DNA of 64,000 nt, taken from positions 61,497-125,496 of the forward strand of contig DATDAS010000047.1 in assembly GCA_036525315.1 (NCBI GenBank), in the 5' to 3' direction. Below, in pieces: positions 3,066 to 58,961 of this stretch. Within the stretch, counting starts at the first letter, position 1. The number at the start of each line of letters is the position of its first letter. The notes beneath the pieces were generated by a model, which worked only from the letters and a program-made list of their open reading frames with translations, was not told the origin of the DNA and searched no databases. Source of the stretch: Allosphingosinicella sp. Lineage in GTDB: Bacteria; Pseudomonadota; Alphaproteobacteria; Sphingomonadales; Sphingomonadaceae. The translations under genes were made by a program, and so were the position numbers.

Positions 3066-3074
3066 GAGGATCCT

Positions 3075-37538: not shown

Positions 37539-37581
37539 CTCCGCGCGTCCATTTGTTGTAGGGAAGAGGTCAGGAGGGCTG

Positions 37582-38846
<1,265 letters not shown>

Positions 38847-38850
<4 letters not shown>

Positions 38851-43103: not shown

Positions 43104-44072
43104 ATGTCTTCGAAACAGGCCTTATTGAAGCTGGCGGAAGCGGCCGGCCTTTCGGCGGCGGCCCGGCGCGCGACCGCCGGTCGTCTGCGCATTCTCTGCT
43201 ATCACGGACTTTGGGTCACACCGGGCCATCAGTTCGGCGACTGCCTGTTCATCAGGCCCGAGCAATTCGAGGCGCGGATGGCGCGGATCGCCCGATCGGG
43301 GCTTCCGGTCCTTCCCCTCGGCGAGGCGGTCGAGCGGCTCGGAGAAGACAGCCTGCCCGACGGCGCCCTGGTCGTGACCATCGACGATGCCTGGGTCTCG
43401 ACCTTCACCCACATGCTGCCCGTGCTCGAGAAATATGCGCTCCCGGCGACGCTCTATGCGACGACCTGGTATGCAGGACGCGACCTTCCCGTCGTCAACG
43501 TCGCGATCGACTATCTGCTCGATGCCTCGGGCCGCCGCGATCTGGACCGCGATTCGGCGGTCGAACGGATCGAGCGGCTGCCGGTCGGCGAGCGGCTCGA
43601 GGCGCTCCGCGCCTTCGGCCGCGAGCTCGGAGTCTCCGAAGCCTGGCTCGAGACCCGCCAGTTCAACATCATGTCGGGCGAGGAGCTGGCCGAGGCGCAG
43701 CGTCGCGGCCTCGACGTCCAGCTCCACACCCATCGCCATATCGACGTCGCCACCGAGCTCGACGCTCTGCCCCGGGAGATCGAGGAGAATCGCGCCTTCC
43801 TCGAAGCGGCCGGCGTGGCCGGACCGTTCGACCATTTCTGCTATCCGAGCGGCGCCAGCCACGAGCGCGCCGCCGGCTTGCTCGCCGCGAGCGGAGTGCG
43901 CTCGGCGACGCTGGTCGACCAGGGCATCAACCTGCCCCGCGCGGATCCTTATGCGCTCCGCCGCTTCCTCGACGCCCGCCACGTCGGCGAGGCAGAGTTC
44001 GACGCCTATCTGTCCGGCCTGCTCCACTATCTCGCGCCCGCGCAAAAGCTCCGAGGGCTGGTGTCAGGGTAA
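43104..44072 (+). CDS. Polysaccharide deacetylase (NodB homology) family protein
   Basis: RILCYHGL, VVTIDDAWVS (the catalytic DD motif), ATLYATT and QLHTHRH (His motif). Confidence 0.82.
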   Translation: MSSKQALLKLAEAAGLSAAARRATAGRLRILCYHGLWVTPGHQFGDCLFIRPEQFEARMARIARSGLPVLPLGEAVERLGEDSLPDGALVVTIDDAWVSTFTHMLPVLEKYALPATLYATTWYAGRDLPVVNVAIDYLLDASGRRDLDRDSAVERIERLPVGERLEALRAFGRELGVSEAWLETRQFNIMSGEELAEAQRRGLDVQLHTHRHIDVATELDALPREIEENRAFLEAAGVAGPFDHFCYPSGASHERAAGLLAASGVRSATLVDQGINLPRADPYALRRFLDARHVGEAEFDAYLSGLLHYLAPAQKLRGLVSG

Positions 44073-44106
44073 GCGGATCGTAAACTATCTGCCCTAGGAT
44101 CGCGCC

Positions 44107-45072
44107 ATGACCGCCGATCCGCACGCGAAACCGATCGCCGCCGGAGCCGTCTTCCCGGCCGAGGCGCTATTCCCGAGCTGGCGCGGCAACCAGCCTTTCG
44201 CCGATCGCCTCAAGCCCGTCTCCGATGCGCTCCATAGCGCTCATTCCGGTTTGGCCGCCGCGATCGAAGCGCTTCCGTTCGACCGCTTCGAAGCGGCATG
44301 GGGGGCAGCCGGCACGGGCTGCAAATATACGCACGTGCCCGCCGCCGCGGCTGCTTTGCTCGAGGGCCTCCCTGAGGAACTTCGTTCTCCCTGGCTCTGC
44401 GCGCTTCTGCTCCGGCATGGCGAGCGCTTCGAACGGGCTTTCGCGGCGACCGGCCTCCCTGCCGAGTTCGCGCTCCATTATACCGACACGTTCCAGCGCC
44501 TGCTCGACCAGATCGAAAAGGATCCGGGCTTCGCCGACCTGTCGAGCGATTCCTTCCTCAAGGACCTCTGGCTCGCGCGCCTGGTGATGATCCCCGCCTT
44601 TGCCCAAGTCTGGTGGCCCTGGTCCGGCCTGTCCGGCCGCGACGTGCTTCGCGGCGGACCCGCGGCGCTCGCCCAGGTCTTCCTGCGTTGCGGCGGCCGG
44701 CGCCCGTTCCTCGAAGGCCATACCCACGATCCGGTCGCCCGCGCCTATTGGAACGAGGCCGGGTGGCGCGAGGCGCTTCGGCTCGCCGCTCTCGCTCTGC
44801 CGGCGCTCCCGTGGGCGAAGGGCGTGTTCGGAACGGCCTGGTTCTACGACCCGGCGGTCAGGGAGATCAGCCCGCGAATAGCTTTCGCCCAGGACCTCCA
44901 GGCCGGCCATGGCGCGTTCCGCCTCAAGATCGGGAGCAACGAGGCGGCGATCGCCAACGCCACCGCGACCTCGGCCGAGCGCCGCAACCGCTACAAGGAC
45001 GGCGCCTATCTGCCGACCGATTACGCCCTGATCTGGTCGCGAAAGGACATAAGGGCCGCTTACGGCGCCTGA
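44107..45072 (+). CDS. Hypothetical protein (no recognisable motif)
   Basis: 321-aa ORF with GC-typical codon usage, tightly packed after the deacetylase gene. It overlaps the convergent gene by 13 nt. Confidence 0.6.
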   Translation: MTADPHAKPIAAGAVFPAEALFPSWRGNQPFADRLKPVSDALHSAHSGLAAAIEALPFDRFEAAWGAAGTGCKYTHVPAAAAALLEGLPEELRSPWLCALLLRHGERFERAFAATGLPAEFALHYTDTFQRLLDQIEKDPGFADLSSDSFLKDLWLARLVMIPAFAQVWWPWSGLSGRDVLRGGPAALAQVFLRCGGRRPFLEGHTHDPVARAYWNEAGWREALRLAALALPALPWAKGVFGTAWFYDPAVREISPRIAFAQDLQAGHGAFRLKIGSNEAAIANATATSAERRNRYKDGAYLPTDYALIWSRKDIRAAYGA

Positions 45073-46886
45073 CGAGCGGCGGCCGGCGTGGCCCTTTTCG
45101 GCAGCATCACCCGCCACATCTTGTAGGGCGAATCCTTGGGAAGCTCGACCTTGCCGAGCCAGGCCGGGACCTGCCCCTTGTTGAGCTGGACGTAAAAACC
45201 GTTGGGAGCCGCCGCGGCGTAGATGGTCGATTCCGACAGGCTCGGACAGATCAGGACATAGTCGATGCCCCGCCGCTCGATCACCTCGCGCGCATGTTCG
45301 GGCGTGCCCCGGAAGGTGGTCGCGATATCGACGATGTCCTCGTCGTTGCGGTGATAGGGCCCGGCGACCGCGTCATGATGGGTGACGGCGATCAGCCGCG
45401 GGCCAAGATCGATGAAGGTCAGCACATAGCCCTTCGGCTGTCGGGCGACCGCCCGGAGCCCGCGCAACGAGGGGCACTGGGCGTTGGCCCGGTTGATCGA
45501 TTTGAGCCTGGGCGCCCTGGTGTCCGGAATGAGGCGAGCCGCCTGCTGCGCCGCGATGCCCGAGACGATCAGGAAGGCGGCGACCGTTCCGAGCACGCGC
45601 ACGAGCATGTGCCTGCTGTTCAGGGTCTTCGGGATTGCGAGCCAGCCAAGCGCCGCCGCGCCCGGCACGGCGAGCAGCTGCGCGGCGGGACCGGCCCGGC
45701 TCTGCCAGAGCAGGAGCGAGGCGGCGAGAAGGGCCGGCGCCGCGATCGACGCCCAGAGAATCAATTTCTCGCGGTCGAGGCGGACTCGCCACAGGGTCAC
45801 CGCATAGCCGATCAGTCCGATCACCGGCAGCGAGGTCACCACCACCGCGGTCTGGAAGCCGTGGCGGTAGATCGGCCGGGCCTCGCGCACATTGTTGAGC
45901 CAGAGCGCCTCGGCCTGGGGCGACACGCCTTCGAGCCGCGAGAGGCAATGCGGCCAGGCCCAGGCGAACGCGCCGGCAAGCACGGCCCCGGCCGCCGCGG
46001 CAAGCGCCAGGCGGATCGGCCAGCGGGCCGGCGAGGCCATTGCGAGCAGGACGGCAAGAGCGCCCGCAACGATCATCGCCCACAGCCAGACCGGCGACAG
46101 AGCGTCGCAGACCGGCGCCCGGTTGGCGTAGGATGCGAAAACGAGATAGGCGGTCGAGCAGCCCCCCGCGAGGCTGGCGCCATAGGTTGCGAGCCGCCGC
46201 GCCTGACCGGGGTCGATGAGCCAGCGAAGGACGGTGAGTCCGCCCGCCAGCGCCAGATACAGGAGCATCTCGAGCCCGATCGCCAGCGAGAGCGCGGTCG
46301 CGATCCCCAGCAAGGCGCCGCCGCGGGCGCGCTTCGGATCGGTGAGCGCGGCGACGACCAAAGCGAGCATCGCCAGCTGCCAGCCGTGATGATCGATCCG
46401 AAGCGGCATGAACATGCCGCGGGTCGATGGGGCAAGGACCAGGATGGCGATCGCGAGCGCGAAGGCCTTGGGCGAGATCATCCGCCGAGCGACGACCGCG
46501 ACGGCGCCCATCAGCACCGCCATCGGGATGATCGGCGCGAAGGCGACCGCCGCCCGCTCCGCCGCGGCCCCTCCCATAAAGGGCGCGAGAGCGAGCTTGA
46601 TGCCGGCGATCGGAAGGTCGACCAGCCGCGACCAGTGGATGTCGGCGCCTCCCGGAGGGTCGAGCCGATGCTGCCTGAGATCGTACCAATCCTGCCCGGC
46701 GAGCAGGTCGCGGACCTGCATCATGCGCAGATTGTCGTCGGTGTCGCCGAGCGCGAAGGCGTTGATCGCCGCCCAGCGGTCGATCAGGAATATGATTGCG
46801 AAGAGCAGCCAGAAGAGCAGGACGAACCAGCGCCATCTCTTCTCCAGCCCGTCCAGCTCCCCCATTGCCGCTTTCGCCCTTTCCAA
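45060..46886 (-). CDS. Multi-pass membrane protein, GT-C-fold glycosyltransferase-like
   Basis: About 600 aa with at least 10 hydrophobic segments. The first predicted loop has an acidic motif (LGDTDDNLRMMQVRDL), and a soluble C-terminal domain of about 130 aa follows. The fold is inferred, not shown. The start is TTG 46886 or ATG 46865. Confidence 0.7.
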   Translation of the reverse strand: MERAKAAMGELDGLEKRWRWFVLLFWLLFAIIFLIDRWAAINAFALGDTDDNLRMMQVRDLLAGQDWYDLRQHRLDPPGGADIHWSRLVDLPIAGIKLALAPFMGGAAAERAAVAFAPIIPMAVLMGAVAVVARRMISPKAFALAIAILVLAPSTRGMFMPLRIDHHGWQLAMLALVVAALTDPKRARGGALLGIATALSLAIGLEMLLYLALAGGLTVLRWLIDPGQARRLATYGASLAGGCSTAYLVFASYANRAPVCDALSPVWLWAMIVAGALAVLLAMASPARWPIRLALAAAAGAVLAGAFAWAWPHCLSRLEGVSPQAEALWLNNVREARPIYRHGFQTAVVVTSLPVIGLIGYAVTLWRVRLDREKLILWASIAAPALLAASLLLWQSRAGPAAQLLAVPGAAALGWLAIPKTLNSRHMLVRVLGTVAAFLIVSGIAAQQAARLIPDTRAPRLKSINRANAQCPSLRGLRAVARQPKGYVLTFIDLGPRLIAVTHHDAVAGPYHRNDEDIVDIATTFRGTPEHAREVIERRGIDYVLICPSLSESTIYAAAAPNGFYVQLNKGQVPAWLGKVELPKDSPYKMWRVMLPKRATPAAARQAP

Positions 46887-46907
46887 GCTCAGCCCCGGGC
46901 CTTAATC

Positions 46908-46986
46908 GCTAGCGTGCTGGATTAGAAGTTCGCTTGAGGGTCGGATCGCGCTCGGAGCGAACTTCTAATTCAAAGAGCACGCTAGC
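46908..46986. repeat. Long hairpin A (11 + 14 bp stem, 21-nt loop) in a divergent intergenic region; possible structured RNA or MITE-like element
   Basis: 46908-46918 pairs with 46976-46986, and 46921-46934 pairs with 46956-46969, all Watson-Crick. Confidence 0.75.
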
Positions 46987-46997
46987 ACAGGGATTCG

Positions 46998-47068
46998 CTA
47001 GTGTGGCTGAAGATTTGGAAATTCGCTCTGAGTCCTCCATCAGGCGAATTTCCAAATCGCCACACTAG
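46998..47068. repeat. Long hairpin B (10 + 15 bp stem, 17-nt loop), with the same architecture as hairpin A
   Basis: 46998-47007 pairs with 47059-47068, and 47012-47026 pairs with 47044-47058. The loop TCTGAGTCCTCCATCAG contains CCTCC. Confidence 0.75.
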
Positions 47069-47095
47069 GCCGCCAAAGGGCAACAAGCTTCACTC

Positions 47096-47497
47096 ATGGT
47101 ACCTGAAGAACATCGCGAGCTGTTCGGGCAGCTGGTCCGATTCGGGCTGACCGGCGGCCTGCTGACCATATTGGTCGCGGGCGGTTATTGGGTGCTTGCG
47201 ACGCCCTTCCGCGTCGAGCCCATGACCGCGATGACCATCGCCTTCCTGATCGTCACCGGAATCGGATATCTGCTGCACAGCAATTTCAGCTTCAGGGGCC
47301 ATGGCAGCCGCGACCGGGCGGCGGTCCGCACGGTCCGCTTCTTCACGGTCAACATCCTCGGCTTCCTCACCAACCAGTTCTTCATCTGGCTCCTGGTCAA
47401 GCATATGGACGGACCGACCTGGTGGCCGATCCCGTTCATCATCTTGATAACGCCGATCCTCACCTTCACCCTGAACAGGAAATGGGTGTTCGGCTGA
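47096..47497 (+). CDS. GtrA family membrane protein
   Basis: 133 aa, four TM segments, N-terminal LVRFGLTGGLLTIL and C-terminal TLNRKWVF, both typical of GtrA-like proteins. Confidence 0.87.
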   Translation: MVPEEHRELFGQLVRFGLTGGLLTILVAGGYWVLATPFRVEPMTAMTIAFLIVTGIGYLLHSNFSFRGHGSRDRAAVRTVRFFTVNILGFLTNQFFIWLLVKHMDGPTWWPIPFIILITPILTFTLNRKWVFG

Positions 47498-47564
47498 GCG
47501 AATTCCGCTTCCTCTTTCCGCTTTGTTAACCATTTCCGGCAACATTTGTGGCAGACCAGAGCCC

Positions 47565-48524
47565 ATGCTAGCGACCCAGCCACTCCTGTCCGTGATCGTG
47601 CCCGTCAAGGACGAGGAGGAAGCAATCGCGCCCTTCGTCGAACGGGTCGGAGCGGTGCTCGACGGCCTTGCCGACGCGGAGGCGAGGGACGGCTGGGAGA
47701 TACTTTTCATCGACGACGGCAGCGAGGACATGACCATGGCGGCGATCCGCGCCGCCCATGGCCGCGACAAACGGGTCCGGGCCATCTCGCTGTCGCGCAA
47801 TTTCGGCAAGGAGGCCGCGCTTTCGGCGGGCCTCGATCATGCCGCCGGCCGGGTGGTCGTCCCAATCGACGTCGATCTCCAGGATCCGCCCGAGGTAATC
47901 GGAGCGATGATCGCCAAGTGGCGCGAAGGCAATGAGGTGGTCTACGGAGTCCGCCGCAACCGGGCGACCGACAGCCTTCCCAAGAGGCTTACCGCAGACC
48001 TCTATTACCGGGCCCACAATTATCTCTCGTCGGACAAGATACCCGAGCATGCCGGCGATTTCCGGCTGCTCGACCGGTCGGTGGTCGACGTCATTAGATC
48101 GATGCCCGAGCGCAACCGGTTCATGAAGGGCCTGTTCGCCTGGGGCGGATTCCGCCAGGCCGCGGTCGAATATGACCGCGTCCCGCGCCAGGTCGGCAAG
48201 ACCAAGTTCCGATACTGGAAATTGTGGACGCTCGCGCTCGACGGGATCACCTCGGCCTCGACCATGCCTTTGCGAATCTGGTCCTATGTCGGCCTGGTCA
48301 TCGCCTTCCTGGCTCTCGTCTACGCGGTGCTGGTGATCGTCCGGACCACATTGTTCGGGATCGACGTGCCCGGCTATCCGAGCCTGATGGTCGCGGTGCT
48401 CTTCTTCGGCGGGCTCCAGCTCATCTCGCTCGGCGTTCTCGGCGAATATGTCGGACGGATCCTGGTCGAGGCCAAGCAGAGGCCGATCTACGTGGTTCGC
48501 GACAAGATAGGGTTGGACGGCTGA
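47565..48524 (+). CDS. Family 2 glycosyltransferase, GtrB/ArnC-like polyprenyl-phosphate sugar synthase type
   Basis: LSVIVPVKDEEEAI, ILFIDDGSEDMT, VVPIDVDLQDPPE (DxD) and two C-terminal TM helices. ATG 47565 was chosen inside ORF 47523-48524. Confidence 0.9.
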   Translation: MLATQPLLSVIVPVKDEEEAIAPFVERVGAVLDGLADAEARDGWEILFIDDGSEDMTMAAIRAAHGRDKRVRAISLSRNFGKEAALSAGLDHAAGRVVVPIDVDLQDPPEVIGAMIAKWREGNEVVYGVRRNRATDSLPKRLTADLYYRAHNYLSSDKIPEHAGDFRLLDRSVVDVIRSMPERNRFMKGLFAWGGFRQAAVEYDRVPRQVGKTKFRYWKLWTLALDGITSASTMPLRIWSYVGLVIAFLALVYAVLVIVRTTLFGIDVPGYPSLMVAVLFFGGLQLISLGVLGEYVGRILVEAKQRPIYVVRDKIGLDG

Positions 48525-49282
48525 TGGACCGGCACGTTTATGACAATATGGCGAAGGTCGATTCCGACCATTGGTGGTTCGTCGCCCGCCGCCGCATCAT
48601 CCGCGACCTCATAGAGAAAGTGGTCAAGCCCAAGCCCGGCGCCCAGATTCTCGAGGTCGGCTGCGGCACCGGATCGAACATCGAGCTGCTTCGCGGCTTC
48701 GGAACCGTCGACGCGGTCGAGCCCGACGATCCGGCGCGCAAGCTCGCCTCCGAGCGGAGCGGGATCGCGGTCAAGGGCGGGCTTCTCCCCGGCGGAGTGC
48801 CGCTCGAGGACGACCGCTACGATTTGATCGCCCTGTTCGACGTGCTCGAGCACATTCCCGACGATGAAGGCGCGCTTGCGGAGCTGGCGCGCAAGCTGGC
48901 GCCGGGCGGCAAGCTGCTTCTCACCGTGCCGGCGATGCCCTGGCTGTGGAGCGCCCACGACGTCGCTCACCATCATCAGCGCCGCTACACGCGCTCGGGG
49001 CTCGAGAAGGTGCTGAAGGATTCGGGCTTCCGCCCACTCCATGTCAGCCATTTCAACACCCTGCTCTTCCCGCTGATCGTCGCCGCGCGCGCGGTCGGAA
49101 AGCTGACCGGGCGCGAGGGCGGCGACGACGCTCTTCCGCCCGCGCCGGTCAACGCGCTGCTGCGCGGAGTCTTCGCCGCGGAGCGATACGCCGTCCCCCA
49201 TCTCTCAATCCCGTTCGGCGTATCGCTCGCGGTGATCGCCGAGCGCGCGGCGGAAGCGGAGAGCTTGCGGGCGGCTGCGTGA
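48524..49282 (+). CDS. Class I SAM-dependent methyltransferase
   Basis: ILEVGCGTGSNIELL (motif I), DLIALFDVLEHIPDD and GGKLLLTVPA. The start overlaps the upstream stop (TGATG). Confidence 0.87.
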   Translation: MDRHVYDNMAKVDSDHWWFVARRRIIRDLIEKVVKPKPGAQILEVGCGTGSNIELLRGFGTVDAVEPDDPARKLASERSGIAVKGGLLPGGVPLEDDRYDLIALFDVLEHIPDDEGALAELARKLAPGGKLLLTVPAMPWLWSAHDVAHHHQRRYTRSGLEKVLKDSGFRPLHVSHFNTLLFPLIVAARAVGKLTGREGGDDALPPAPVNALLRGVFAAERYAVPHLSIPFGVSLAVIAERAAEAESLRAAA

Positions 49283-50478: not shown

Positions 50479-51965
50479 GCCGCGTCTTCCCGGCCGGCGC
50501 CGCGCTGCTGATCCTCGCGGCCGCACTGGCTCTGCGCTGCTGGCATATCGCGAACTGGCCGCTCTGGCTCGACGAGAGCTGGAGCCGCTGGATGACCGAG
50601 CAGAGCTGGTCCGGCCTCTGGCACGCCGCCTCCGGCTACGACACCCATCCGCCTTTCTATTATTCGCTGCTCAAGGCCTGGACCGGAATCGCGCCCTCGA
50701 CGCCTTTCTGGCTCCGCTTCCCTTCCCTGATCGCCTCGCTGCTGATGCTCCCGCTCGCCTGGGCTTGCGCGGGCCAGATCGGCGCCCTCCGCCGGGCTCC
50801 TGGCGCGCGAATCATCGCGGTCATGCTCATTGCGGTCTCCCCGCCCCTGATCGTCGCCGCCGGCCAGGCCCGCCCTTACGCCCTGCTTGCACTCGCCTTC
50901 GGCATCGCCTTGTGGGCAGGGATACGGCTGCTCAGAACGCCGACGCCGACTCCGACATGGCGGATCTGGCTTGTCTATCTCCTCGGAATCGAAGCGACGC
51001 TCTGGCTGCACAGCCTCGCCGCCCTGTTCGTGGTCGCGCTCGGGGTCGGCCTGTTGCTCGCCATGGCCAATGCCGCGACGTTGCGCGCGCACTGGATGAA
51101 GTGGATCGGCGTTCATGCCCTGGCCGGCCTGCTCTGGCTGCCCGGCTTCCTCGTCCTGCTCGAGCAGCGCCGCAATTGGGGCGCGAGCAGCTGGCTCACT
51201 TTCTCTTTCGGCGATGTCGCGCCGGGGCTGGCCGTCGGCCTGGCCGGCGGCGGCCTCGCTTTCCTCCTCGTCGTCTTCGTCTGGCTCGGCGCGCGCAACC
51301 TGCTTCGAGACGGCGAGGACAGGCCGGCCGCGATCCTTCTCCTCTGCGCCGCCTTCCTGCCGGTCGCGCTGACGATCCTGGTCTCGGCCCTCTTCTCGCC
51401 GATCTTCCTGCCTCGCACGCTCGTGCCGTCGGTCCTCCCGGTCCTTCTTCTCGCCGCCTCCGCCTTCACCGCCATGGACCGAAGGCGAATTCCCGCATTC
51501 GCGACACTCGCCGCGCTCGCCACGATCCTGCTTCTGATTCCCGCCCTCGACCACGCCCGCTCCGATCCCGAGGAGAAATGGCCCGCCTTGGGCGCATGGC
51601 TCGCGCCGCGGGTGGGCCCGAGCGAGGAATTATGGCTGCTGCCCAACGAGATCGCTTTGCCGTTCCGCTACGGCGCCGGCCCCACCCGCTACGCGTTCCG
51701 CGGAATTCCCGCCGATTTCCCCGCGCCTGATCATCCGGGACCTCGCCCGTCCGGCTCCAGGGCGGTGGTCGCCATGACCTCCGCCGATGCCCGGCGGCTC
51801 GTCACCGACGCCCGCCGGCGCGGGCTGACCGGAATATGGATCGTGACTCGCTTCCCGCGCCTGTTCGATCCCGGGCGAACGATCCAGGCCGCGTTCGCCG
51901 AGGAGAGCCGCGACGTTCGCGACCTCCGCTTCGCGCCACTGATCGTCGATCATTACCGTCTCTGA
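50475..51965 (+). CDS. GT-C glycosyltransferase, ArnT/PMT (family 39/83)-like
   Basis: ATGA overlap with the upstream gene. PLWLDESWS and THPPFYYSLLKAW lie in the first loop region, followed by many TM segments and a soluble C-terminal domain. Confidence 0.83.
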   Translation: MSRVFPAGAALLILAAALALRCWHIANWPLWLDESWSRWMTEQSWSGLWHAASGYDTHPPFYYSLLKAWTGIAPSTPFWLRFPSLIASLLMLPLAWACAGQIGALRRAPGARIIAVMLIAVSPPLIVAAGQARPYALLALAFGIALWAGIRLLRTPTPTPTWRIWLVYLLGIEATLWLHSLAALFVVALGVGLLLAMANAATLRAHWMKWIGVHALAGLLWLPGFLVLLEQRRNWGASSWLTFSFGDVAPGLAVGLAGGGLAFLLVVFVWLGARNLLRDGEDRPAAILLLCAAFLPVALTILVSALFSPIFLPRTLVPSVLPVLLLAASAFTAMDRRRIPAFATLAALATILLLIPALDHARSDPEEKWPALGAWLAPRVGPSEELWLLPNEIALPFRYGAGPTRYAFRGIPADFPAPDHPGPRPSGSRAVVAMTSADARRLVTDARRRGLTGIWIVTRFPRLFDPGRTIQAAFAEESRDVRDLRFAPLIVDHYRL

Positions 51966-52054
51966 ACGCGAGGCTCGGCGGGCGTTCAACCTTCATAAAG
52001 GCGGCCTCCGGCACATGCGGGTCATCCAGACCTGATGACTGCATTGGAGCTGAC

Positions 52055-52717
52055 ATGAAGAAGTTCGTATTTGCCGGCGCGGCCCTGGCCGCGATCGCCG
52101 CCATCCCGGCCACCGCCCAGCCCGGCCCGGACGGGCCCGCCCGCCATGACGGGCCGCTGACCCGGGCCTCGGTCCAGACCATGGTCCAGGCCCGTTTCGC
52201 CAAGGTCGATACCAACAAGGACGGTTTCGTCACCCGCGCCGAGGCCGATGCCCGGATGGCCGAGGCGCGCGAGAAACGGGAGGCGCGAATGGAGCAGCGC
52301 CGCGAACGCCGGGCCGAGAATCGCGCCGGCCTGTTCGACCGGATCGACACGGACAAGAACGGCTCGATCAGCCGCACCGAGTTCGACGCCCATTCCGCGG
52401 CCCGCGCCGAGCGCCGGGCGGAACGCCGCGGCCCCGACGGGGCAAAAGGCGGACGCGGCATGCGGCATGGCGGAATGATGCGCCATCGCGGCGCCGGCGC
52501 CATGGCCGGCGGCCATTTCGGCGGAAGGATGTTCGAGCGCATGGATTCCGACCGTGACGGCAAGGTCTCGATCGCCGAGGCCTCGTCCCGCGCGCTCGAG
52601 ATGTTCGACCGCGCCGACTCCAACCGCGACGGCACGGTGACCGTCGAGGAGCGCCGGGCCGCCAGGGAGCGCTTCCGCGAGGATCGCCGGGGCGGCGACG
52701 CCCCCCGCGGCGGCTGA
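52055..52717 (+). CDS. Secreted EF-hand calcium-binding protein (four EF-hand loops)
   Basis: Signal peptide MKKFVFAGAALAAIAAIPATAQ. Loops are DTNKDGFVTRAE, DTDKNGSISRTE, DSDRDGKVSIAE and DSNRDGTVTVEE. ATG 52055 was chosen inside ORF 51836-52717. Confidence 0.88.
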   Translation: MKKFVFAGAALAAIAAIPATAQPGPDGPARHDGPLTRASVQTMVQARFAKVDTNKDGFVTRAEADARMAEAREKREARMEQRRERRAENRAGLFDRIDTDKNGSISRTEFDAHSAARAERRAERRGPDGAKGGRGMRHGGMMRHRGAGAMAGGHFGGRMFERMDSDRDGKVSIAEASSRALEMFDRADSNRDGTVTVEERRAARERFREDRRGGDAPRGG

Positions 52718-52738
52718 GCGCGGGCTCGCCAAGGATGA

Positions 52739-52768
52739 AGGGCCGGGGAGCGATTCCCCGGCCCTTTT
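52739..52768 (+). terminator. Rho-independent terminator after the EF-hand gene
   Basis: AGGGCCGGGGA-GCGAT-TCCCCGGCCCT is a perfect 11-bp stem followed by TTTT. Confidence 0.75.
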
Positions 52769-54304
52769 CTATTGGGCAGTCTCGCGCCGCACCCTGAACA
52801 GCCTGCTCGTCCCGTCCGCCCAGACCGGCTCGAGGCCGCCCACCAGCGCCGGATCGTAAGGGGGCGGATCGATCAGCCAGACATAATCGAAGGCCGGCCG
52901 GGGCAGGCGCTTCAGCGCCTCGCTCACCGGGAAGAGATCGTAATTGCGGCAGCCGTCGGGCATGACGACATGGGTGGGGTCGCTCGCGAAATCGCCGGCC
53001 TCCCGATAATGGACGCTCAGCAATTGCGCGCCGGCGAGGCGGAACTGATCGTTGGCGAAACCCGCTCCGCGCGCCAGGGCGAGCCCAGGCAGATGCTCGA
53101 GCCTCGAGCGCTTCCACCCCTCGTCGCAGGGCCGCCCCGTCAGGGCCGCGATCCGCGCCCCGCGCGGGACATGGTCGAGCGCGGCCAGCTCCCTGTCCCA
53201 TTCGCGGTCGTAGAGCCCGAAGCTGATCGTGTTGCCGGCGATCCTGAGCCCGGCGAACAGCAGGCCGGCCAAAGCGAGAGCCCGGACGAACCGCATGTCG
53301 CTCCAGTCGCGCGGCCGGGCCGCGAGCAGGGCGGCCGCGAACAAATAGGGCGCCAGGCGCATATCGGCCAATGCCGATCCGAACAGGTTCCTCGGAAGCA
53401 GCAGGAAGATCGAGGCCAGCACGATCGCTCCAGCGGCCAGCCCACGCGAAAAGGCGATCCGGGGGCTTCGCGCGCAGACGAAGATGAGCATCACGACGAC
53501 CGCGACGGCGAGGGCGTCCCACCACAGCCAGCGGTCGCGAAGCACGATGAACAGGGAATCGAGCTTGGCCTGGACGTTGAACCAGTCGCCGGTCGTTCCG
53601 CCGACCTCGCCGGAGCGCCACAGAAGCATCGGGATGAGCGGCGGCGCCAGCGCGAGGCAGTGCATGGCCGCCTTCGCGAGAGCCGCGGGCGGCGTTCGGC
53701 CGCCCTCCCGCTGCCGCACCGTCTCGGCGGTGAAGGCGAGCAGGCCCAGAACGCCCCAGCCGAACGCATGCGTGACCCAGACCAGGGAGGATATGACCGG
53801 GAACAGGGCCGCGCGCAGCCGCAAATGCCCGAGCCGTGCGAGCCTCAGCCACAAGGCGAAGGCGAGAAAGGCGAAAGCCATCGACAGCGCGAAGTTCGCG
53901 AATCCGAAGATGAAGGGATAGGCATAAGCGAAAGGCGCGGCGAAGAAGGCGATCGGGCTGACCCGGCCATGGACCTCGCGCGCGACCCAGAGGAAGCCGG
54001 CGACCGTCAATGGCGGGATTGCGAGCACGATCAGCTTCACCGCGAGCTCGAGCCCGAAGACTTTCGAGAGCGGAACGACCAGAAGGTCGATGCCCAGATT
54101 GCCGATCAGCGACCATTGGAAGCTGAAATAGCGGGCAAGCTCCGGGTCCGAGCCGATATCCATCTGGACCCGGTAGCGCCCGATATGTCCCGGGAGATCG
54201 ACCAGAGGCGGAACGTCGGGCCAGAGCAAAGGCAAGGCCGAAGCCAGGACGAACAGGATCAGGAAGCTTCGACTCTCCCAGAAGCCGCGCCCGGCCGCGC
54301 TCAA
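52769..54304 (-). CDS. Multi-pass membrane protein, tandem paralog 1 (uncharacterised family; possible GT-C-like enzyme)
   Basis: 511 aa. The N-terminal approximately 380 aa are hydrophobic, and the first loop is WPDVPPLVDLPGHIGRY. Highly similar to the adjacent gene. The TTG start overlaps the upstream stop (TTGA). Confidence 0.78.
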   Translation of the reverse strand: MSAAGRGFWESRSFLILFVLASALPLLWPDVPPLVDLPGHIGRYRVQMDIGSDPELARYFSFQWSLIGNLGIDLLVVPLSKVFGLELAVKLIVLAIPPLTVAGFLWVAREVHGRVSPIAFFAAPFAYAYPFIFGFANFALSMAFAFLAFALWLRLARLGHLRLRAALFPVISSLVWVTHAFGWGVLGLLAFTAETVRQREGGRTPPAALAKAAMHCLALAPPLIPMLLWRSGEVGGTTGDWFNVQAKLDSLFIVLRDRWLWWDALAVAVVVMLIFVCARSPRIAFSRGLAAGAIVLASIFLLLPRNLFGSALADMRLAPYLFAAALLAARPRDWSDMRFVRALALAGLLFAGLRIAGNTISFGLYDREWDRELAALDHVPRGARIAALTGRPCDEGWKRSRLEHLPGLALARGAGFANDQFRLAGAQLLSVHYREAGDFASDPTHVVMPDGCRNYDLFPVSEALKRLPRPAFDYVWLIDPPPYDPALVGGLEPVWADGTSRLFRVRRETAQ

Positions 54305-55881
54305 GCGGCGGGTTCCGGTGCGATCTCGGCCTGGCGCACGACCCTGAACAGTCGGCTGCGCCCCTTCGACCAGACCAGCTCCAGCCCGTCGGTGAGATGG
54401 GGATCGTAGGGCGGCGGCTCGATCAGCCAGACGTAGTCGAAGGCATAGCGCGGCATGCGCTGGAGCGCGTCGGCGACCCGGAGCAAATCATGGTCGATGC
54501 AGAGCGCCGGGATAACGACGTGCGAGGGATCGGTGACGAACGCGCCGGCCTCGGGATAGCGCACGGTCATCAATTGCGCCCCGGCCATGCTGAACTGCGA
54601 GTTGGCGAAACTGGCGCCGCGCACCAGAGCGAGGCTTCCGAGATGCTCGATGCGCGGAGTCATCCAATTCTCGCCGCAGGACCGTCCGGTCAGGACGAGG
54701 ATTCGCGAGCGCGGCGGCACATGGTCGAGCGCCGCGAGTTCGCGGTCCCATTCTTTGTCGTAGAGCCAGAAGCTGATCGTCGTCCCGGCCGTGCGAAGCG
54801 CGATGAAGGCGATTCCGACCAAAGCGATCGTTCGAACGAAGCGCAGGTCCGACCAGTCGCGCGGGCTGGCCGCGAGCAATGCGACCGCGAATATGTAGGG
54901 CGCCAGCCGCATGTCGGCATAGGCCGATCCGAACACGACCCTCGGCAGGAGAACGAACACCAGAGCAAGAAAGAGTGCCGAGGCGGTGAGGTTGCGCGAC
55001 CAGGCGATCCGCTTGCTTCGGATCGACTGGACGATGAGGAGAAGCACGGCGGTCAGGCAGAAGGCGTCCCAATAGAGCCAGCGGTCGCGAAGAACGACGA
55101 CCAGGGCGAAGATCTTGGCGGGGATGTTGAACCAGTCCTCGGTGAGGCCCCCGACATGGCCGGTGCGCCACAGAAGCATCGGAACGACGGGAAGCGCCAT
55201 CGGAAGGCAGTGGACGGCGGAGCGAATTGCCGAAGCGATGACGCCGTGGCCCTTGTCGTGCTGCCGGACCGCTTCGGCCGAGAAGGCCATCAGCCCGAGC
55301 GTGCCCCAGCCGAACGTGTGGGTGACCCAGATCAGGCACGAGATCGGCACGAACAAGGCGGCGCGGAGCCTGAACCTGCCGAGCCGCCCGAGCCTGAGCC
55401 ACAGGCCGAAGGCGAGGAAGGCGAAGGCCATCGACAAAGCGAAGTTCGCGAAGCCGAACATGAAGGGGTAGGAATAAGCGAAGGGGGCGGCGAAGAAGGC
55501 GATCGGGCTGACCCGGCCGTGGACCTCGCGCGCCACCCAGAGGAATCCGGCGACGGTCATCGGCGGGATCGAAAGCACGATCAGCTTCACCGCGAGCTCG
55601 AGCCCGAAGACCTTGGAGAGCGGGACGATCAGAAGGTCGATACCCAGATTGCCGATCAGCGACCATTGGAAGCTGAAATAGCGGGCGAGATCGGGCCTCG
55701 ACCCGATATCGAGCTGGATCCGGTAGCGGCCCATATGGCCGGGCAGGTCGATCAGAGGCGGCACGTTCGGCCACAGCAAAGGCACGGCCGCGAGCAGGAT
55801 GAAGGCGATCAGGAAGGGGCGCGTTTCCCAGAAGCCGCGCTCGCCGGGCGCCGGGGCGGGTTGCCAGGTCGGTCCGCTCAT
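54301..55881 (-). CDS. Multi-pass membrane protein, tandem paralog 2
   Basis: ATG 55881 was chosen inside ORF 54301-56100, where the alignment with paralog 1 begins (GERGFWETRPFLIAF versus GRGFWESRSFLILF). Confidence 0.78.
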   Translation of the reverse strand: MSGPTWQPAPAPGERGFWETRPFLIAFILLAAVPLLWPNVPPLIDLPGHMGRYRIQLDIGSRPDLARYFSFQWSLIGNLGIDLLIVPLSKVFGLELAVKLIVLSIPPMTVAGFLWVAREVHGRVSPIAFFAAPFAYSYPFMFGFANFALSMAFAFLAFGLWLRLGRLGRFRLRAALFVPISCLIWVTHTFGWGTLGLMAFSAEAVRQHDKGHGVIASAIRSAVHCLPMALPVVPMLLWRTGHVGGLTEDWFNIPAKIFALVVVLRDRWLYWDAFCLTAVLLLIVQSIRSKRIAWSRNLTASALFLALVFVLLPRVVFGSAYADMRLAPYIFAVALLAASPRDWSDLRFVRTIALVGIAFIALRTAGTTISFWLYDKEWDRELAALDHVPPRSRILVLTGRSCGENWMTPRIEHLGSLALVRGASFANSQFSMAGAQLMTVRYPEAGAFVTDPSHVVIPALCIDHDLLRVADALQRMPRYAFDYVWLIEPPPYDPHLTDGLELVWSKGRSRLFRVVRQAEIAPEPAA

Positions 55882-55969
55882 TCGGGAAGGTCTGCTGGGC
55901 AAGGCATAAGCCGCACTGTGGTTCGGCGAAATTAAGGAAATATCAACCAAGAAATCCGACCAATGGCGG

Positions 55970-57556
55970 GTGCAGGGATCGATCGCCATTACTGAAGCGG
56001 AACCCGCGGGCGCCGTCGGCGCCCGGCCGGCGCAATCGCGGCTGGGTTGGACCATCGCCGTCGCCCTCGCCGCCGCCCTTCTTCTGAAGCTCTGGGGCAT
56101 CGGGGCCCGGCCGCTCTGGCTCGACGAAGGCTACAGCCATTTCTTCTCCGGCCTGGGCTGGCGCGAGCTCTGGTTCGAGACTCCCGAATATGAACCTCAC
56201 CCCCCTCTTTATTATTCCGTCCTGAAGCTGTGGCGCGGGCTGTTCGGCGACGAGGCGGGGGCGCTTCGAGGCCTCTCGGCCCTGGCCGGGATCCTCACTG
56301 TGCCGCTCGCCGCACTCGCCGCGCACGAGCTTGCGCGCCTGGCCAGGAGCCCGCGCCCGATGCTGATGGTAGGCATTGCCGCGGCGCTGGCCGCGCTGTC
56401 GCCGCGCCTGCTCGCCTCTTCGCAGGACGCTCGACCTTATGCCCTGCTGATCTTCGCTTATGCCCTGGCGATCTGGGCCTGGCTTCGCCTCGCCAACAGT
56501 TTCCGCGACGACCGGGCCTCGCCTGGGCGCGGGAGCGACTGGATCGCGCTCGGCGCCGGCACCGCGCTGACGCTGTGGCTGCACGGGCTCGGTCTTCTCT
56601 ATGCCGCCTCCCTGCTCGGCGCCCTGCTTCTAGTCGCGGCGCCGGGCGCCACGCGCGCGCGCTGGCTCCGTCTCGCCGCCTGCGCCGGCCTGGTCCTCCT
56701 CCTCTATCTGCCCTGCGTCTACATTCTGGCCGGCCGAAGCGGCGACTGGGGCACGGGCTGGCTGCGCTGGAACGTCGCGACCTTCCCCGGGCAGATGCTC
56801 GACCTGATCTCGCTTCACCGGTTCGACGAGCCGATCACGCCGGTCCTCGCGCGGATCCTGATCCCGATCCTGCTCTTCCTGGGCATCAGGGACCTGTTCC
56901 GCTCCGGAAACCGCGACATCGGCCGGGGCCTCCTGCTCCTGATCCTGCTGCCGCCGCTCGCCGCCGCCTGGATCTCGCAGCTCGCGATGCCGGTCTTCCT
57001 GCCGCGCACACTGGCCGGCGTGCTCGTGCCGATCTACCTCGCCTGCGCGCTCGCAATCGCCGCTTTGCCGCGCGGGCAGATGCGCGCGGCGGGCGGCGCT
57101 CTGGCGGCGATCTTCCTGGTCAATCTCGTCCAGGCGGTGAACCGGCCGCCGATCGAGCGCTGGGACAGCATAACCGCCATATTGGCCCGCGAGATGGGCC
57201 CGCGCGACACGGTCTGGCTCTATCCGAACGATGCCGAGCTACCGCTTCGGAGCGCCGCCAGCCCGGCCCTGACCGCCCATCCGATCCCCTCGCCCTTCCC
57301 TGCGCTGGGCGTGGGGGGAAGCCATCCCTCGGGAAACGCCGGCGTGGTCGGGCTCGACTCGCGCTCGGCACGGCTCTGGGCCGAGCGCCACCCCGCGGAT
57401 CCGGCCGGGACAATCTGGCTGGTGCGGAGCGCGCCGGGCCTGTTCGATCCGAAGGACGAGGTGCTTCGCGGCCTCGCCGGCAACCGCCGGATCGGCCCGC
57501 GTCGACAATGGGACGATCTTGTCCTGGAGCCGCTCCGCCCGGCCCATACGCCCTAA
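55970..57556 (+). CDS. GT-C glycosyltransferase, ArnT/PMT (family 39/83)-like, paralogous to 50475-51965
   Basis: PLWLDEGYS and PHPPLYYSVLKLW match the motifs of the 50475 gene, with the same multi-pass plus C-terminal soluble architecture. GTG start. Confidence 0.83.
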   Translation: MQGSIAITEAEPAGAVGARPAQSRLGWTIAVALAAALLLKLWGIGARPLWLDEGYSHFFSGLGWRELWFETPEYEPHPPLYYSVLKLWRGLFGDEAGALRGLSALAGILTVPLAALAAHELARLARSPRPMLMVGIAAALAALSPRLLASSQDARPYALLIFAYALAIWAWLRLANSFRDDRASPGRGSDWIALGAGTALTLWLHGLGLLYAASLLGALLLVAAPGATRARWLRLAACAGLVLLLYLPCVYILAGRSGDWGTGWLRWNVATFPGQMLDLISLHRFDEPITPVLARILIPILLFLGIRDLFRSGNRDIGRGLLLLILLPPLAAAWISQLAMPVFLPRTLAGVLVPIYLACALAIAALPRGQMRAAGGALAAIFLVNLVQAVNRPPIERWDSITAILAREMGPRDTVWLYPNDAELPLRSAASPALTAHPIPSPFPALGVGGSHPSGNAGVVGLDSRSARLWAERHPADPAGTIWLVRSAPGLFDPKDEVLRGLAGNRRIGPRRQWDDLVLEPLRPAHTP

Positions 57557-58851: not shown

Positions 58852-58961
58852 GGCGCTCAGATAGCCGGGGGTTGGCGGTTTAGGCAATAAGGCGGATTCC
58901 GGCGCCGTTCCGCGCCGCCCCATACGTTCCCCGTACCCGCGAATCCCTCTATGGCGCAGAA

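Follow-up and report, generated by a model that had tools for sequence, protein, structure and literature searches.

Gene content and coding support of the locus

The window, a 64,000-nucleotide stretch of DNA, carries a cluster bounded by marC (ending at 42787) and a cyclopropane-fatty-acid-synthase (CMAS) gene (starting at 57580). Between them lie genes for a GtrA-family protein, a GtrB-type polyprenyl-phosphate glycosyltransferase (GT), a SAM-dependent methyltransferase and six GT-C-type membrane proteins. The latter fall into four sequence families without mutual relationship, namely GT87, two divergent PMT_2-like paralogs, the pair mp511/mp599, and the STT3-like mp608 of ~600 residues. 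The genes described by an earlier sequence-only reading of this DNA were found at or near the positions that it gave, with coding support from GC3 (0.78-0.87 in the chosen frames) and from dN/dS (0.06-0.31 against a metagenomic relative that is ~80-95% identical and has the same gene order); purifying selection acts on all genes of the cluster. An order of 16 genes is kept in full in a relative at dS ~0.3-0.6. Judged from relatives, the starts of two genes, mp608 and mp599, probably lie further in than their longest ORFs suggest. The nearest relatives all belong to Allosphingosinicella, Sphingosinicella, Sphingomicrobium or Sphingomonas; hence, the host is a sphingomonad, as had been considered possible.

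Six genes follow each other on one strand in the order gtrA, GT2, methyltransferase, GT87, p496 and EF-hand gene, and four of them are joined by start/stop overlaps. This chain, already claimed for GT2 through p496 (47565-51965), can be read directly in the sequence as TGATG (48522-48526), GTGA (49279-49282) and ATGA (50475-50478).

The GtrA, GtrB-type and methyltransferase genes

The first gene of the operon (47096..47497, + strand) codes for a GtrA-family small membrane protein of 133 residues (PF04138, 6e-19), a proposed polyprenyl-phosphate sugar flippase. The next (47565..48524, +) encodes a 319-residue GtrB-type polyprenyl-phosphate GT combining a GT2 domain (PF00535, 3e-27) with a C-terminal transmembrane (TM) hairpin, its TM segments being predicted close to the C-terminus. 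Over its full length it is homologous to Synechocystis GtrB, whose crystal structure is available (5EKP, E 4e-103), and it is also related to ArnC (E 7e-45); in NCBIfam it matches PgfS (4e-80) and ArnC (3e-49), each under the cutoff of the model. The proposed GtrA plus GtrB-type donor machinery is thus borne out. The start of the third gene (48524..49282, +), coding for a class I SAM-dependent methyltransferase of 252 residues that is a core member of the locus (Methyltransf_23, 1.7e-21), shares 1 nt with the stop codon of the GT2 gene.

In the established scheme GtrB produces Und-P-glucose, which GtrA is proposed to flip, with a GT-C enzyme finishing the transfer (PMC11127046, PMC4728340). 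The Gtr systems of Shigella and Salmonella phages consist of GtrA, GtrB and a Gtr-type GT-C protein, and related three-component systems have been reviewed (PMC11127046, PMC8035078). The present locus resembles the phage O-antigen glucosylation systems in encoding GtrA, a GtrB-type GT2 and GT-C transferases together, and in the implied logic of a Und-P-sugar made inside, flipped, and used outside. In contrast to them, it resides on the chromosome and is conserved order-wide rather than phage-borne, has six GT-C proteins of four families instead of one, and includes a conserved methyltransferase and an STT3-like protein as the proposed primary GT-C. We know of no LPS O-antigen in sphingomonads that could serve as the acceptor.

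mp608, an STT3/AglB/DPY19-like membrane protein

The longest ORF of mp608 (45060..46886, - strand) comprises 608 codons, but its start is probably the ATG at 46865, giving a product of 601 residues as in the relative. No Pfam or NCBIfam model, Pfam STT3 included, matched it. Its AF2 model (pLDDT 85.5, pTM 0.86) has about 13 predicted TM helices, with a globular periplasmic domain at the C-terminus. Foldseek searches with this model recovered AglB (7e9s, E 3.7e-9, TM-score 0.65) as the best match, and AglB, STT3, PglB and DPY19 at TM-scores of 0.52-0.65 (DPY19 0.61); the C-terminal domain likewise aligns structurally with those of AglB. At the sequence level, the family profile matches two structures of the AglB C-terminal domain, 3vgp (E 0.006) and 3vu0. 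The family is large (5107 clusters at 50% identity), and D50, D51, D165, H166, H167, E335 and R397 are invariant in it down to 28% identity. Its invariant acidic residues fall in the first external loop, a placement shared with GT-C active sites, and E335 in the long external loop; together with the arginine, the acidic residues are candidate catalytic residues. Conserved cysteines occur in pairs, both in loops predicted to be external and within the C-terminal domain. By these models, mp608 looks like an enzyme of archaeal or eukaryotic protein N-glycosylation, and it is the conserved member around which the locus is anchored. The sequence-only reading had correctly noted a multi-pass protein of about 600 residues here and its GT-C character, but missed both its likeness to STT3/AglB and its anchor role.

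This likeness raises the prospect that mp608 is a true oligosaccharyltransferase, transferring a preassembled Und-PP-oligosaccharide en bloc to protein asparagines like PglB or AglB, with the Gtr genes merely decorating the glycan. Such a role would fit its closest structural matches, which are AglB, STT3 and PglB with the C-terminal domain included, as well as the sequence link to AglB C-terminal domains. It would also fit the invariant glutamate of the long external loop, and R397, which could bind phosphate. Conserved acidic residues of the first external loop and a D-x-H element are further features shared with the STT3/AglB/PglB subunits. However, in the profile alignment the WWDYG motif of AglB, which forms the Ser/Thr pocket, is met by xxDxGP in the mp608 family with both tryptophans gone; hence, classical N-X-S/T glycosylation by mp608 is unlikely. 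The DK/MI motif, including the lysine of DK, is not evident either. Moreover, genes for the assembly of lipid-linked oligosaccharides are absent nearby, there being no phosphoglycosyltransferase, Wzx/PglK-type flippase or cytoplasmic glycan-assembly GT among the characterised genes of the window. The constant neighbours of mp608 are instead GtrA and the GtrB-type enzyme, which make monophosphate-linked monosaccharides, and DPY19, a user of Dol-P-Man, matches it nearly as well (TM-score 0.61). We regard the oligosaccharyltransferase alternative as very unlikely. mp608 also differs from the PglB homologs in its alphaproteobacterial host, these being otherwise known to us mainly from Campylobacterota and some Desulfobacterota.

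STT3-family enzymes normally take pyrophosphate-linked oligosaccharides, not Und-P-monosaccharides; it is only from the neighbouring genes that we infer a Und-P-monosaccharide as the donor of mp608. The DPY19 C-mannosyltransferases, which are eukaryotic, depend on Dol-P-Man and act on tryptophans in WxxW motifs, match mp608 structurally almost as well as STT3 does (TM-score about 0.6) and join an STT3-like fold to a monophosphate-linked monosaccharide donor, as the Gtr neighbours imply for mp608. No sequence similarity between mp608 and DPY19 was detected, however, and the adjacent EF-hand protein is devoid of tryptophan.

Accessory GT-C proteins

Downstream of the methyltransferase gene lies that for a 399-residue GT87 (DUF2029) GT-C glycosyltransferase (49279..50478, +; PF09594, 84.7 bits where the cutoff is 25, E 1e-23), an accessory found in only a few related loci. 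It is followed by the gene for p496 (50475..51965, +; 496 residues), also an accessory, in which D33-E34 is invariant directly past TM1. The gene for the 528-residue p528 (55970..57556, +) has like genes in a subset of related loci. The two were previously described as 'ArnT/PMT-like'; they are divergent PMT_2-like paralogs (35% identity, E 3e-49). Taken singly, both stay under the Pfam PMT_2 gathering score, and the matches of p528 to PMT_2 (5.8e-5) and to a TMEM260-like model (1.4e-4) are each below the gathering score, but PMT_2 is matched by 20 of the 31 members of their family (best 7.8e-11). Further, p496 matches an NCBIfam archaeal mannosyltransferase model under its cutoff (3.7e-8), and some of its homologs carry the JGI label 'mannosyltransferase'.

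The remaining two multi-pass proteins, reported earlier as tandem paralogs, are so at 70% identity. The first, mp511 (52769..54304, -; 511 residues), belongs to a family with more than 3400 homologs, every one named 'hypothetical', and showed no sequence match in Pfam, NCBIfam or the PDB. With its AF2 model (pLDDT 83.9), the top 16 PDB matches in Foldseek were all GT-C proteins (TM-score 0.37-0.49), and no other match had a meaningful probability. The family has an invariant D36 at the beginning of the first periplasmic loop and two invariant cysteines in the C-terminal periplasmic domain. This one predicted structure, with moderate TM-scores, suggests that the mp511 family is of the GT-C type. 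The longest ORF of its paralog mp599 (54301..55881, -; dN/dS 0.09) extends to 56100 and would encode 599 residues; its start is probably at 55881, giving 526 residues, the length of the ortholog in a related locus (L172). The GT-C type claimed for up to six of the proteins is favoured for all six, in that GT87 exceeds the gathering score, the models of mp511 and mp608 match GT-C folds, and mp599 and p496/p528 follow by paralogy or family.

Many relatives of mp608 bear the NCBI label 'AcrB/AcrD/AcrF family protein', and neither mp608 nor the mp511 family is matched by a curated glycosyltransferase model, as might be expected if one or both were membrane transporters or other envelope proteins. 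Nevertheless, mp608 has no match to RND or other transporter models in Pfam and NCBIfam, and in the structural searches transporters surface only at probabilities below 0.2 and TM-scores of about 0.1, outranked by at least 25 GT-C matches. The invariant acidic residues lie in the first external loop, like those of GT-C active sites, and genes of both families consistently adjoin those for GtrA/GtrB, making a transporter role extremely improbable.

A separate deacetylase cassette

Between marC and mp608 lie genes for a 322-residue NodB-type polysaccharide deacetylase (43104..44072, +; PF01522 Polysacc_deac_1, 8e-14), in which neither a signal peptide nor a TM segment was seen, and for a soluble protein of 321 residues (44107..45072, +) with no match in Pfam, NCBIfam or the PDB. 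The latter is under constraint (dN/dS 0.13), is confined to about 10 Allosphingosinicella-like genomes, and is, by its pairing in relatives, an obligate partner of the deacetylase. The two genes are paired in all 10 loci but lie inside the GT-C locus in only one of the 10 GTDB genomes; where neighbours were checked (L168, L169), they sit between birA and the complex I (nuo) genes. Being located elsewhere in 9/10 related genomes, they constitute a separate two-gene cassette outside the conserved locus, and their membership of the system, as earlier proposed, is doubtful.

This bears on the comparison with ArnC/ArnD/ArnT, Bordetella LgmABC and Rhizobium RgtE/RgtA-D, with which the locus shares an ArnC-like GT2 and the PMT_2/ArnT-like p496 and p528, and, in the case of Arn and Lgm, a nearby NodB-family deacetylase. 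In contrast to those systems, the deacetylase is here unlinked in relatives and shows no ArnD match in NCBIfam, p496 and p528 belong only distantly to PMT_2, and lipid A is ruled out as the acceptor if the host has no LPS.

Conservation and variability among Sphingomonadales

Across related Sphingomonadales loci, mp608 stands back to back with, and divergent from, gtrA in 78 of 80; the methyltransferase and GT2 genes are each present in 66 of these 80 loci. Well over 100 Sphingomonadales genomes have the core arrangement, and hence the clustering is not due to chance. The locus conservation that had been anticipated holds for this order-wide core of GtrA, methyltransferase, GtrB-type GT2 and mp608, which is strongly conserved rather than scattered, but not for the GT87, the two PMT_2-like and the two mp511-family genes, which are lineage-variable accessories. 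Six GT-C genes, found in this window and one sister contig, are indeed unusual and top the range, the 96 related loci holding 1-4. Many genomes pair mp511-family genes with orthologs or paralogs of mp608, and in Qipengyuania (Erythrobacteraceae; L218) a GtrA-family gene has an mp608 paralog of ~32% identity as its immediate downstream neighbour. Gene order is equally conserved for the housekeeping genes folD, marC and CMAS in the region, so part of the synteny may reflect general chromosomal conservation in the order rather than functional coupling.

The accessory GT-C genes are present in some loci and absent from others, so they may belong to separate pathways. Conceivably, two or three independent systems lie side by side, i.e. 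a core Gtr/STT3-like unit, a GT2-methyltransferase-GT87-PMT_2 module and an mp511/p528 group, each with its own donor and acceptor. This is consistent with the widely varying accessory content and with the equal synteny of the flanking housekeeping genes. Likewise, two loci (L088, L090) have GT2-methyltransferase-GT87-p496 as a separate operon beside a second methyltransferase and GT2 copy, elsewhere in genomes mp511-family genes are also paired with paralogs of mp608, and the deacetylase cassette is demonstrably independent. Against it, the window has six GT-C enzymes but a single GtrA and a single GtrB-type gene, five genes run in the direction of gtrA with translational coupling among four of them, and the 16-gene order is intact in the relative. 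Moreover, the genes of the variable region are all of envelope-glycosylation types, which is unexpected under random neighbourhood drift. We consider such independence unlikely.

Proposed pathway and acceptor

The stretch is a real sphingomonad chromosomal gene cluster, and it probably adds lipid-carried sugars to the envelope, outside the cytoplasm. It is likewise probable that the system is of the Gtr type, expanded to an island of six GT-C transferases. The analysis shows which genes are present, to which families and folds they are assigned, how far they are conserved and how the operon is built; from this we infer the donor type, its flipping, transfer in the periplasm, what the methyltransferase does, and the acceptor. 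The GtrB-type GT2 would transfer a monosaccharide from a nucleotide sugar to undecaprenyl phosphate at the cytoplasmic face; the methyltransferase probably modifies the lipid-linked sugar or the final product; GtrA would carry the lipid-bound sugar across to the periplasmic side; and the GT-C enzymes would pass the sugar to envelope acceptors. Here mp608 would be the primary transferase, with the GT87, PMT_2-like and mp511-family proteins most likely putting further or alternative sugars on the same glycoconjugate.

Mycobacterial lipomannan is built stepwise by several GT-C enzymes. The actinobacterial machinery for lipomannan/lipoarabinomannan and protein O-mannosylation (Ppm1, the GtrA-like Rv3789, PimE/GT87, Pmt) likewise comprises a polyprenyl-phosphate sugar synthase, a GtrA-like protein, GT87 and PMT-type GT-C enzymes, several of the latter acting in series outside the cytoplasm. 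It differs in phylum and envelope, and the genes are here in one locus; we know of no actinobacterial counterpart to the STT3-like or mp511-family components.

As to the acceptor, we tentatively favour an envelope glycan that is lipid-anchored or a polysaccharide, for instance a glycosphingolipid of the LPS-free sphingomonad outer membrane. Periplasmic or outer-membrane proteins are almost as likely, and an acceptor of some other kind is unlikely.

EF-hand gene and non-coding elements

The last gene of the gtrA operon (52055..52717, +) encodes a 220-residue protein matching EF-hand Pfam families. As had been claimed, it is a secreted four-EF-hand protein, with a signal-peptide-like N-terminus and four EF loops; on identical DNA (L161) a gene of its size is called. 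A longer ORF that overlaps it on the opposite strand (52022-52732) was rejected. Relatives often keep the EF-hand gene, with an mp511-family gene on one side and CMAS on the other.

Where the EF-hand gene and mp511 converge, a GC-rich hairpin with a 10-bp stem followed by TTTT (52740..52764) separates their ends; read from the sequence and not listed by a simple terminator scan, it looks like a terminator. Inside the divergent promoter region of mp608 and gtrA lie two tandem imperfect hairpins of ~75 nt (46908..47070), folding at -109 kcal/mol (z = -9.3). The mp608/gtrA spacer is usually ~60-90 bp in relatives (72 bp in the closest), and these hairpins are a lineage-specific insertion rather than a conserved part of the system.

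Gene content and boundaries of the locus

The locus is bounded on the left by marC (42164-42787) and on the right by a gene of the cyclopropane-fatty-acyl-phospholipid-synthase family (CMAS; 57580-58923, - strand). Between these, the + strand carries genes for a NodB-type deacetylase (43104-44072), an unknown 321-aa protein, unk321 (44107-45072), GtrA (47096-47497), a GT2 glycosyltransferase (47565-48524), a SAM methyltransferase (48524-49282), a GT87 protein (49279-50478), the membrane protein p496 (50475-51965), a secreted four-EF-hand protein (52055-52717) and p528 (55970-57556), a paralog of p496. The - strand codes for three further multi-pass proteins, namely mp608 (~600 aa; 45060-46886) and the tandem paralogs mp511 (52769-54304) and mp599 (54301-55881). 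The identities that the sequence-only reading had given to the deacetylase, GtrA, GT2, methyltransferase, GT87 and EF-hand products are upheld by Pfam and NCBIfam, and the start/stop overlaps that it named are found in the DNA.

The window has a G+C content of ~68%, and the true genes are distinguished by a third-position G+C of 0.78-0.87. The same 16-gene order recurs in a metagenomic relative (L172/L173) with protein identities of 78-97%, and the dN/dS of 0.06-0.31 for every gene in this comparison indicates that all are functional genes. Based on the sequences of this relative and of a short contig with identical DNA (L161), the likely starts give proteins of 601 aa for mp608 and 526 aa for mp599, and also set the start of the EF-hand gene. 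An ORF on the - strand (52022-52732) was dropped in favor of the + strand EF-hand gene. The EF-hand and CMAS genes are frequent neighbors of the locus in relatives. At the right-hand edge, many relatives (nine loci) carry two to three tandem CMAS-family paralogs, whereas the window has one.

The deacetylase and unk321 had been counted as part of the cluster, and here the earlier proposal has to be revised: they form a separate pair, present together in 10/10 genomes; of ten GTDB genomes, a single one has this pair within the GT-C locus. At both loci with neighbors checked (L168 and L169), the pair is found between birA and the complex I (nuo) genes. The copies at L164, L168 and L169 are located around positions 6900-8940. 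No relatives of unk321 were detected beyond ~10 Allosphingosinicella-like genomes, and it has no family match. We also considered whether the deacetylase could serve the pathway as an ArnD/LgmC-like enzyme; this reading is not supported, because linkage to the GT2 and GT-C genes is seen in just that one genome, and the protein has no match to the ArnD model.

The donor machinery

The GT2 protein contains a PF00535 domain (3e-27) and matches over its full length the Synechocystis GtrB of solved structure (5EKP, E 4e-103), as well as ArnC (E 7e-45). Its C-terminus has two or three hydrophobic segments, corresponding to the C-terminal membrane helices of the GtrB/ArnC class. The small membrane protein encoded upstream belongs to the GtrA family (PF04138, 6e-19). 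In Gtr systems, GtrB synthesises undecaprenyl-phosphate glucose, for which GtrA has been proposed as the flippase, and periplasmic transfer is then completed by a GT-C enzyme (PMC11127046, PMC4728340). Hence, the first two components of a Gtr-type system are present, and all three gene features, i.e., a GtrB-type GT2, GtrA and a GT-C-fold transferase (with six candidates), are encoded together.

mp608 is a structural relative of STT3 and AglB

mp608 belongs to no curated family of Pfam or NCBIfam. Its predicted structure (pLDDT 85.5), when compared using Foldseek, is closest to archaeal AglB (E 3.7e-9, TM-score 0.65), followed by eukaryotic STT3 (TM-score 0.51-0.63), the C-mannosyltransferase DPY19 (0.59-0.61) and PglB (0.52-0.53); ArnT matches much more poorly (0.31-0.33). 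In this model, a multi-TM N-terminal domain is followed by a C-terminal globular domain with the oligosaccharyltransferase (OST) fold, which by itself resembles 3vu0, an isolated C-terminal domain of AglB, with a target-normalised TM-score of 0.54. Among PDB sequences, a family profile including diverse relatives down to 28% identity matched A. fulgidus AglB-S1 best, in its C-terminal domain (E 0.006), with AglB-S2 also among the matches. A TM-only profile, built to place the catalytic motifs on AglB-L, found no AglB match. Likewise, the curated STT3 model PF02516 gave no Pfam match for mp608 of the window, and weak STT3 matches were seen in just 2/52 diverse relatives (best 4e-4).

The motifs of OST catalytic subunits comprise two DXD motifs, TIXE/SVSE, WWDYG, DGGK and DK/MI; the DXD and TIXE/SVSE motifs make up the metal and catalytic site, and WWDYG together with DK/MI forms the pocket for the Ser/Thr of the sequon (PMC8342417). 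In both the AglB-S1 and AglB-S2 alignments, the segment TF[IV]DLG of mp608 (family consensus xxDxGP) falls on WWDYG, with both tryptophans lost; D493 is nearly invariant in the wider family, and G495 is kept only in close relatives. Given the loss of these tryptophans, mp608 is not a classical oligosaccharyltransferase, yet it is still a structural relative. The family-invariant residues are D50, D51, R54, H84, W85, R87, D165, H166, H167, E206, D261, E335, R397, H512 and R513. Three stretches in predicted external loops, D48-x-D50-D51, D165-H166-H167 and N-V-R-E335, show no or almost no variation. As judged from sequence, the D-x-D-D of the first loop, the D-x-H, the N-V-R-E of the long external loop and the arginine would be compatible with a preserved metal and phosphate site. 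By analogy with DPY19, mp608 may use a monosaccharide linked to a monophosphate carrier.

Clustered at 50% identity, the mp608 family amounts to 5107 clusters (E <= 1e-3), and those named members that were checked are all labeled 'hypothetical protein'. NCBI names many relatives (e.g., the public records P0128, P0138 and P0201) 'AcrB/AcrD/AcrF family protein'. As neither the sequences nor the predicted structure show any likeness to RND transporters in Pfam, NCBIfam or Foldseek searches, this name appears to be a propagated misannotation.

Five further predicted GT-C proteins from three families

The GT87 protein matches PF09594 with 84.7 bits (gathering cutoff 25, E 1.1e-23), and GT87 is likewise called on the contigs of relatives. 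The paralogs p496 and p528 are 35% identical (E 3e-49). Against PMT_2 (PF13231), p528 scores 23.8 bits, under the cutoff of 26.1, and p496 has no match; nevertheless, 20 of the 31 members of their family match it (best 7.8e-11). In the alignment of these 31 sequences, D33 and E34, located in PLWLDE just after TM1 in the first external loop, are invariant, and we take this Asp-Glu pair to be the 'DE motif' of the PMTs.

mp511 and mp599 are 70% identical and represent a family of >3400 sequence clusters, all without names and without Pfam, NCBIfam or PDB sequence matches. When the AlphaFold2 model of mp511 (pLDDT 83.9, pTM 0.88) is compared with the PDB, GT-C enzymes take the first 16 places (STT3, ALG12, AftD, PglB and ArnT; probability 0.94-1.00, TM-score 0.37-0.49), and the matches that follow are unrelated proteins with a probability <0.25. 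D36, at the start of the first external loop helix, is invariant, as are two cysteines in the C-terminal domain. We accordingly assign the mp511/mp599 family a predicted GT-C fold, on a moderate match of one model.

Thus, the GT87 score, the PMT_2 matches of the p496/p528 family and the models of mp511 and mp608 together place all six membrane proteins in the GT-C type, in four families; the GT-C folds suspected from the sequence are borne out by the matches of both models to GT-C enzymes and by the GT87 score above the Pfam threshold. Profile-profile comparison of the mp608, mp511 and p496/p528 families detected no relationship (probability <10%), so that, by sequence, the three are distinct families. 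When mp608, mp511, p496 and unk321 were each searched singly against PDB sequences, nothing useful was returned, and the mp511 and p496 family profiles recovered only noise from the PDB.

Conservation across the Sphingomonadales

A search of one genome per species recovered 80 loci with mp511 relatives and at least 594 matches to mp608, the best 80 of which are all from Sphingomonadales. Among these best 80 mp608 loci, gtrA stands back to back with mp608 in 78, and the methyltransferase and the GtrB-type GT2 are each found in 66. mp511-family genes occur in about half of them, and GT87 and PMT_2-like genes in only a few. The synteny proposed for the locus therefore holds across the order for the core of mp608, gtrA, GT2 and methyltransferase, but does not extend to the remaining GT-C genes. 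An unbiased DNA-motif scan for the signature IDHHGWQ yielded 120 loci, 112 of which encode mp608 homologs, with nearly all from Sphingomonadales (Sphingomonas, Sphingobium, Novosphingobium, Sphingopyxis, Sphingorhabdus and Erythrobacteraceae). Across 96 related loci of >=17 kb, one GT-C gene was counted in 29, two in 39, three in 25 and four in 3; these counts are lower bounds, since a contig end truncates some of the loci. Six such genes are present in the window and in its sister contig.

The mp608 orthologs adjoin gtrA, and a paralog class, ~30-35% identical, often adjoins an mp511-family gene. At the one locus examined, in Qipengyuania (L218, 4654-7985), the mp608 paralog directly follows a divergent GtrA gene and a gene of the sulfatase superfamily. 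This second class is spread over the Sphingomonadales, with eight more loci noted, and in several Sphingomonas genomes the paralog is immediately upstream of an mp511-family gene. In two Allosphingosinicella loci (L088 and L090, positions 0-8000), the GT2 and methyltransferase genes are both present twice: a GT2-methyltransferase-GT87-p496 operon adjoins the gtrA-methyltransferase core and a GT2 gene of opposite orientation whose product is ~40% identical. The single gtrA-GT2-methyltransferase-GT87-p496 operon of the window looks like a merged or reduced form of this arrangement.

The divergent spacer between mp608 and gtrA is typically just 60-90 bp in relatives and 72 bp in the closest one. 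In the window it spans 209 nt (folding energy -109 kcal/mol, z = -9.3) and contains two tandem, imperfect hairpins of ~75 nt (46908-47070), both starting with GCTAG[CT]GTG and ending with CAC[GA]CTAG. The short spacers of relatives mark the hairpins as an insertion specific to this lineage, which may be a REP- or MITE-like element; they are unique within the window. A conserved regulatory RNA was rejected, as the hairpins have no Rfam match and are lacking in relatives. The EF-hand gene and mp511 converge on a GC-rich hairpin (52740-52764; 10-bp stem, 5-nt loop) followed by TTTT, which is a likely terminator of the gtrA operon, even though a simple terminator scan did not report it; the counts of a consensus promoter and terminator scan were at chance level.

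Proposed pathway and acceptor

A Gtr-type pathway is the best-supported reading of the locus, and the functions that we infer for its products are as follows. The GT2 would load a sugar on Und-P, the conserved methyltransferase might methylate it, and GtrA would flip the loaded lipid-linked sugar, with mp608 acting as the core enzyme of periplasmic transfer. In lineages with the corresponding genes, additional or different residues would be supplied by the GT87, PMT_2-like and mp511-family enzymes. In gene content, the locus resembles the actinobacterial set of polyprenyl-phosphate-mannose synthase, GtrA-like protein, GT87 and PMT-type enzymes. It also shows a loose likeness to the archaeal Agl pathways, in which GT2, methyltransferase, flippase and AglB components occur with one further GT-C enzyme.

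Two kinds of acceptor come into question. We give nearly an even chance to a lineage-specific envelope glycan such as glycosphingolipid, which is favored because the motif scan gave almost only Sphingomonadales, and because glycolipids or polysaccharides are the targets of most bacterial Gtr, Arn and Rgt precedents. Proteins are a serious possibility too, if one falling short of even chances, because mp608 is much closer to the protein-modifying STT3 and DPY19 than to ArnT.

Implications

Systems of this kind are already known. What appears to be new is a predicted transferase of the STT3 superfamily that has its sequon pocket replaced, is the putative partner of GtrA and GtrB and is conserved across an alphaproteobacterial order, along with the methyltransferase as a conserved core member, the second large GT-C-like family without annotation, and the presence of six GT-C genes within 12.5 kb. 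A literature search found no description of the mp608 or mp511 families, or of an STT3-like enzyme in Sphingomonadales, and we know of no PglB-type oligosaccharyltransferase in the bacterial class of the host. We tentatively posit, as a proposal that we hold somewhat less than probable, that the mp608 family is an unrecognised bacterial branch of the STT3/AglB/PglB-DPY19 assemblage, in which the WWDYG pocket was swapped for another acceptor site, and that it works with GtrA, GtrB and the methyltransferase on monophosphate-linked sugars in a new periplasmic glycosylation of glycosphingolipid or non-sequon protein sites in LPS-free bacteria; the mp511 family would then be a further new GT-C family.

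Glycosphingolipids replace LPS in sphingomonads. As of 2026, just the first ceramide glycosyltransferases of these bacteria are known (PMC13318209, PMC6445935), and the enzymes listed in recent papers on sphingomonad glycosphingolipids are all cytoplasmic ceramide glycosyltransferases. The locus offers order-wide conserved candidates for elaborating outer-membrane glycans or glycoproteins outside the cytoplasm, and such concrete genes make the question of extracytoplasmic elaboration testable by simple knockouts. Moreover, two large families (>5000 and >3400 sequence clusters), one of them a distant relative of the N-glycosylation enzyme, have gone unrecognised as glycosyltransferases in curated databases. 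A variant of the STT3 superfamily without the sequon pocket would inform the evolution of acceptor specificity and could be of interest to glycoengineers.

Other features of the window

The remainder of the window consists of housekeeping genes. We also observed three co-oriented genes (564-6880) matching an ABC-three-component (ABC-3C) conflict system, with CTD2 (2e-62), Middle Component 1 (2.8e-8) and a 1063-aa ATPase of the SMC/AAA type. Located just upstream of thrS in an island of lower G+C (0.60-0.63 versus ~0.68), the three genes look like a defence-type system gained by horizontal transfer. Elsewhere (37357-39812), an EgtB-like gene coding for DinB_2 and FGE-sulfatase domains adjoins an EgtD-like gene for a histidine-specific methyltransferase (2e-108), which suggests ergothioneine biosynthesis.
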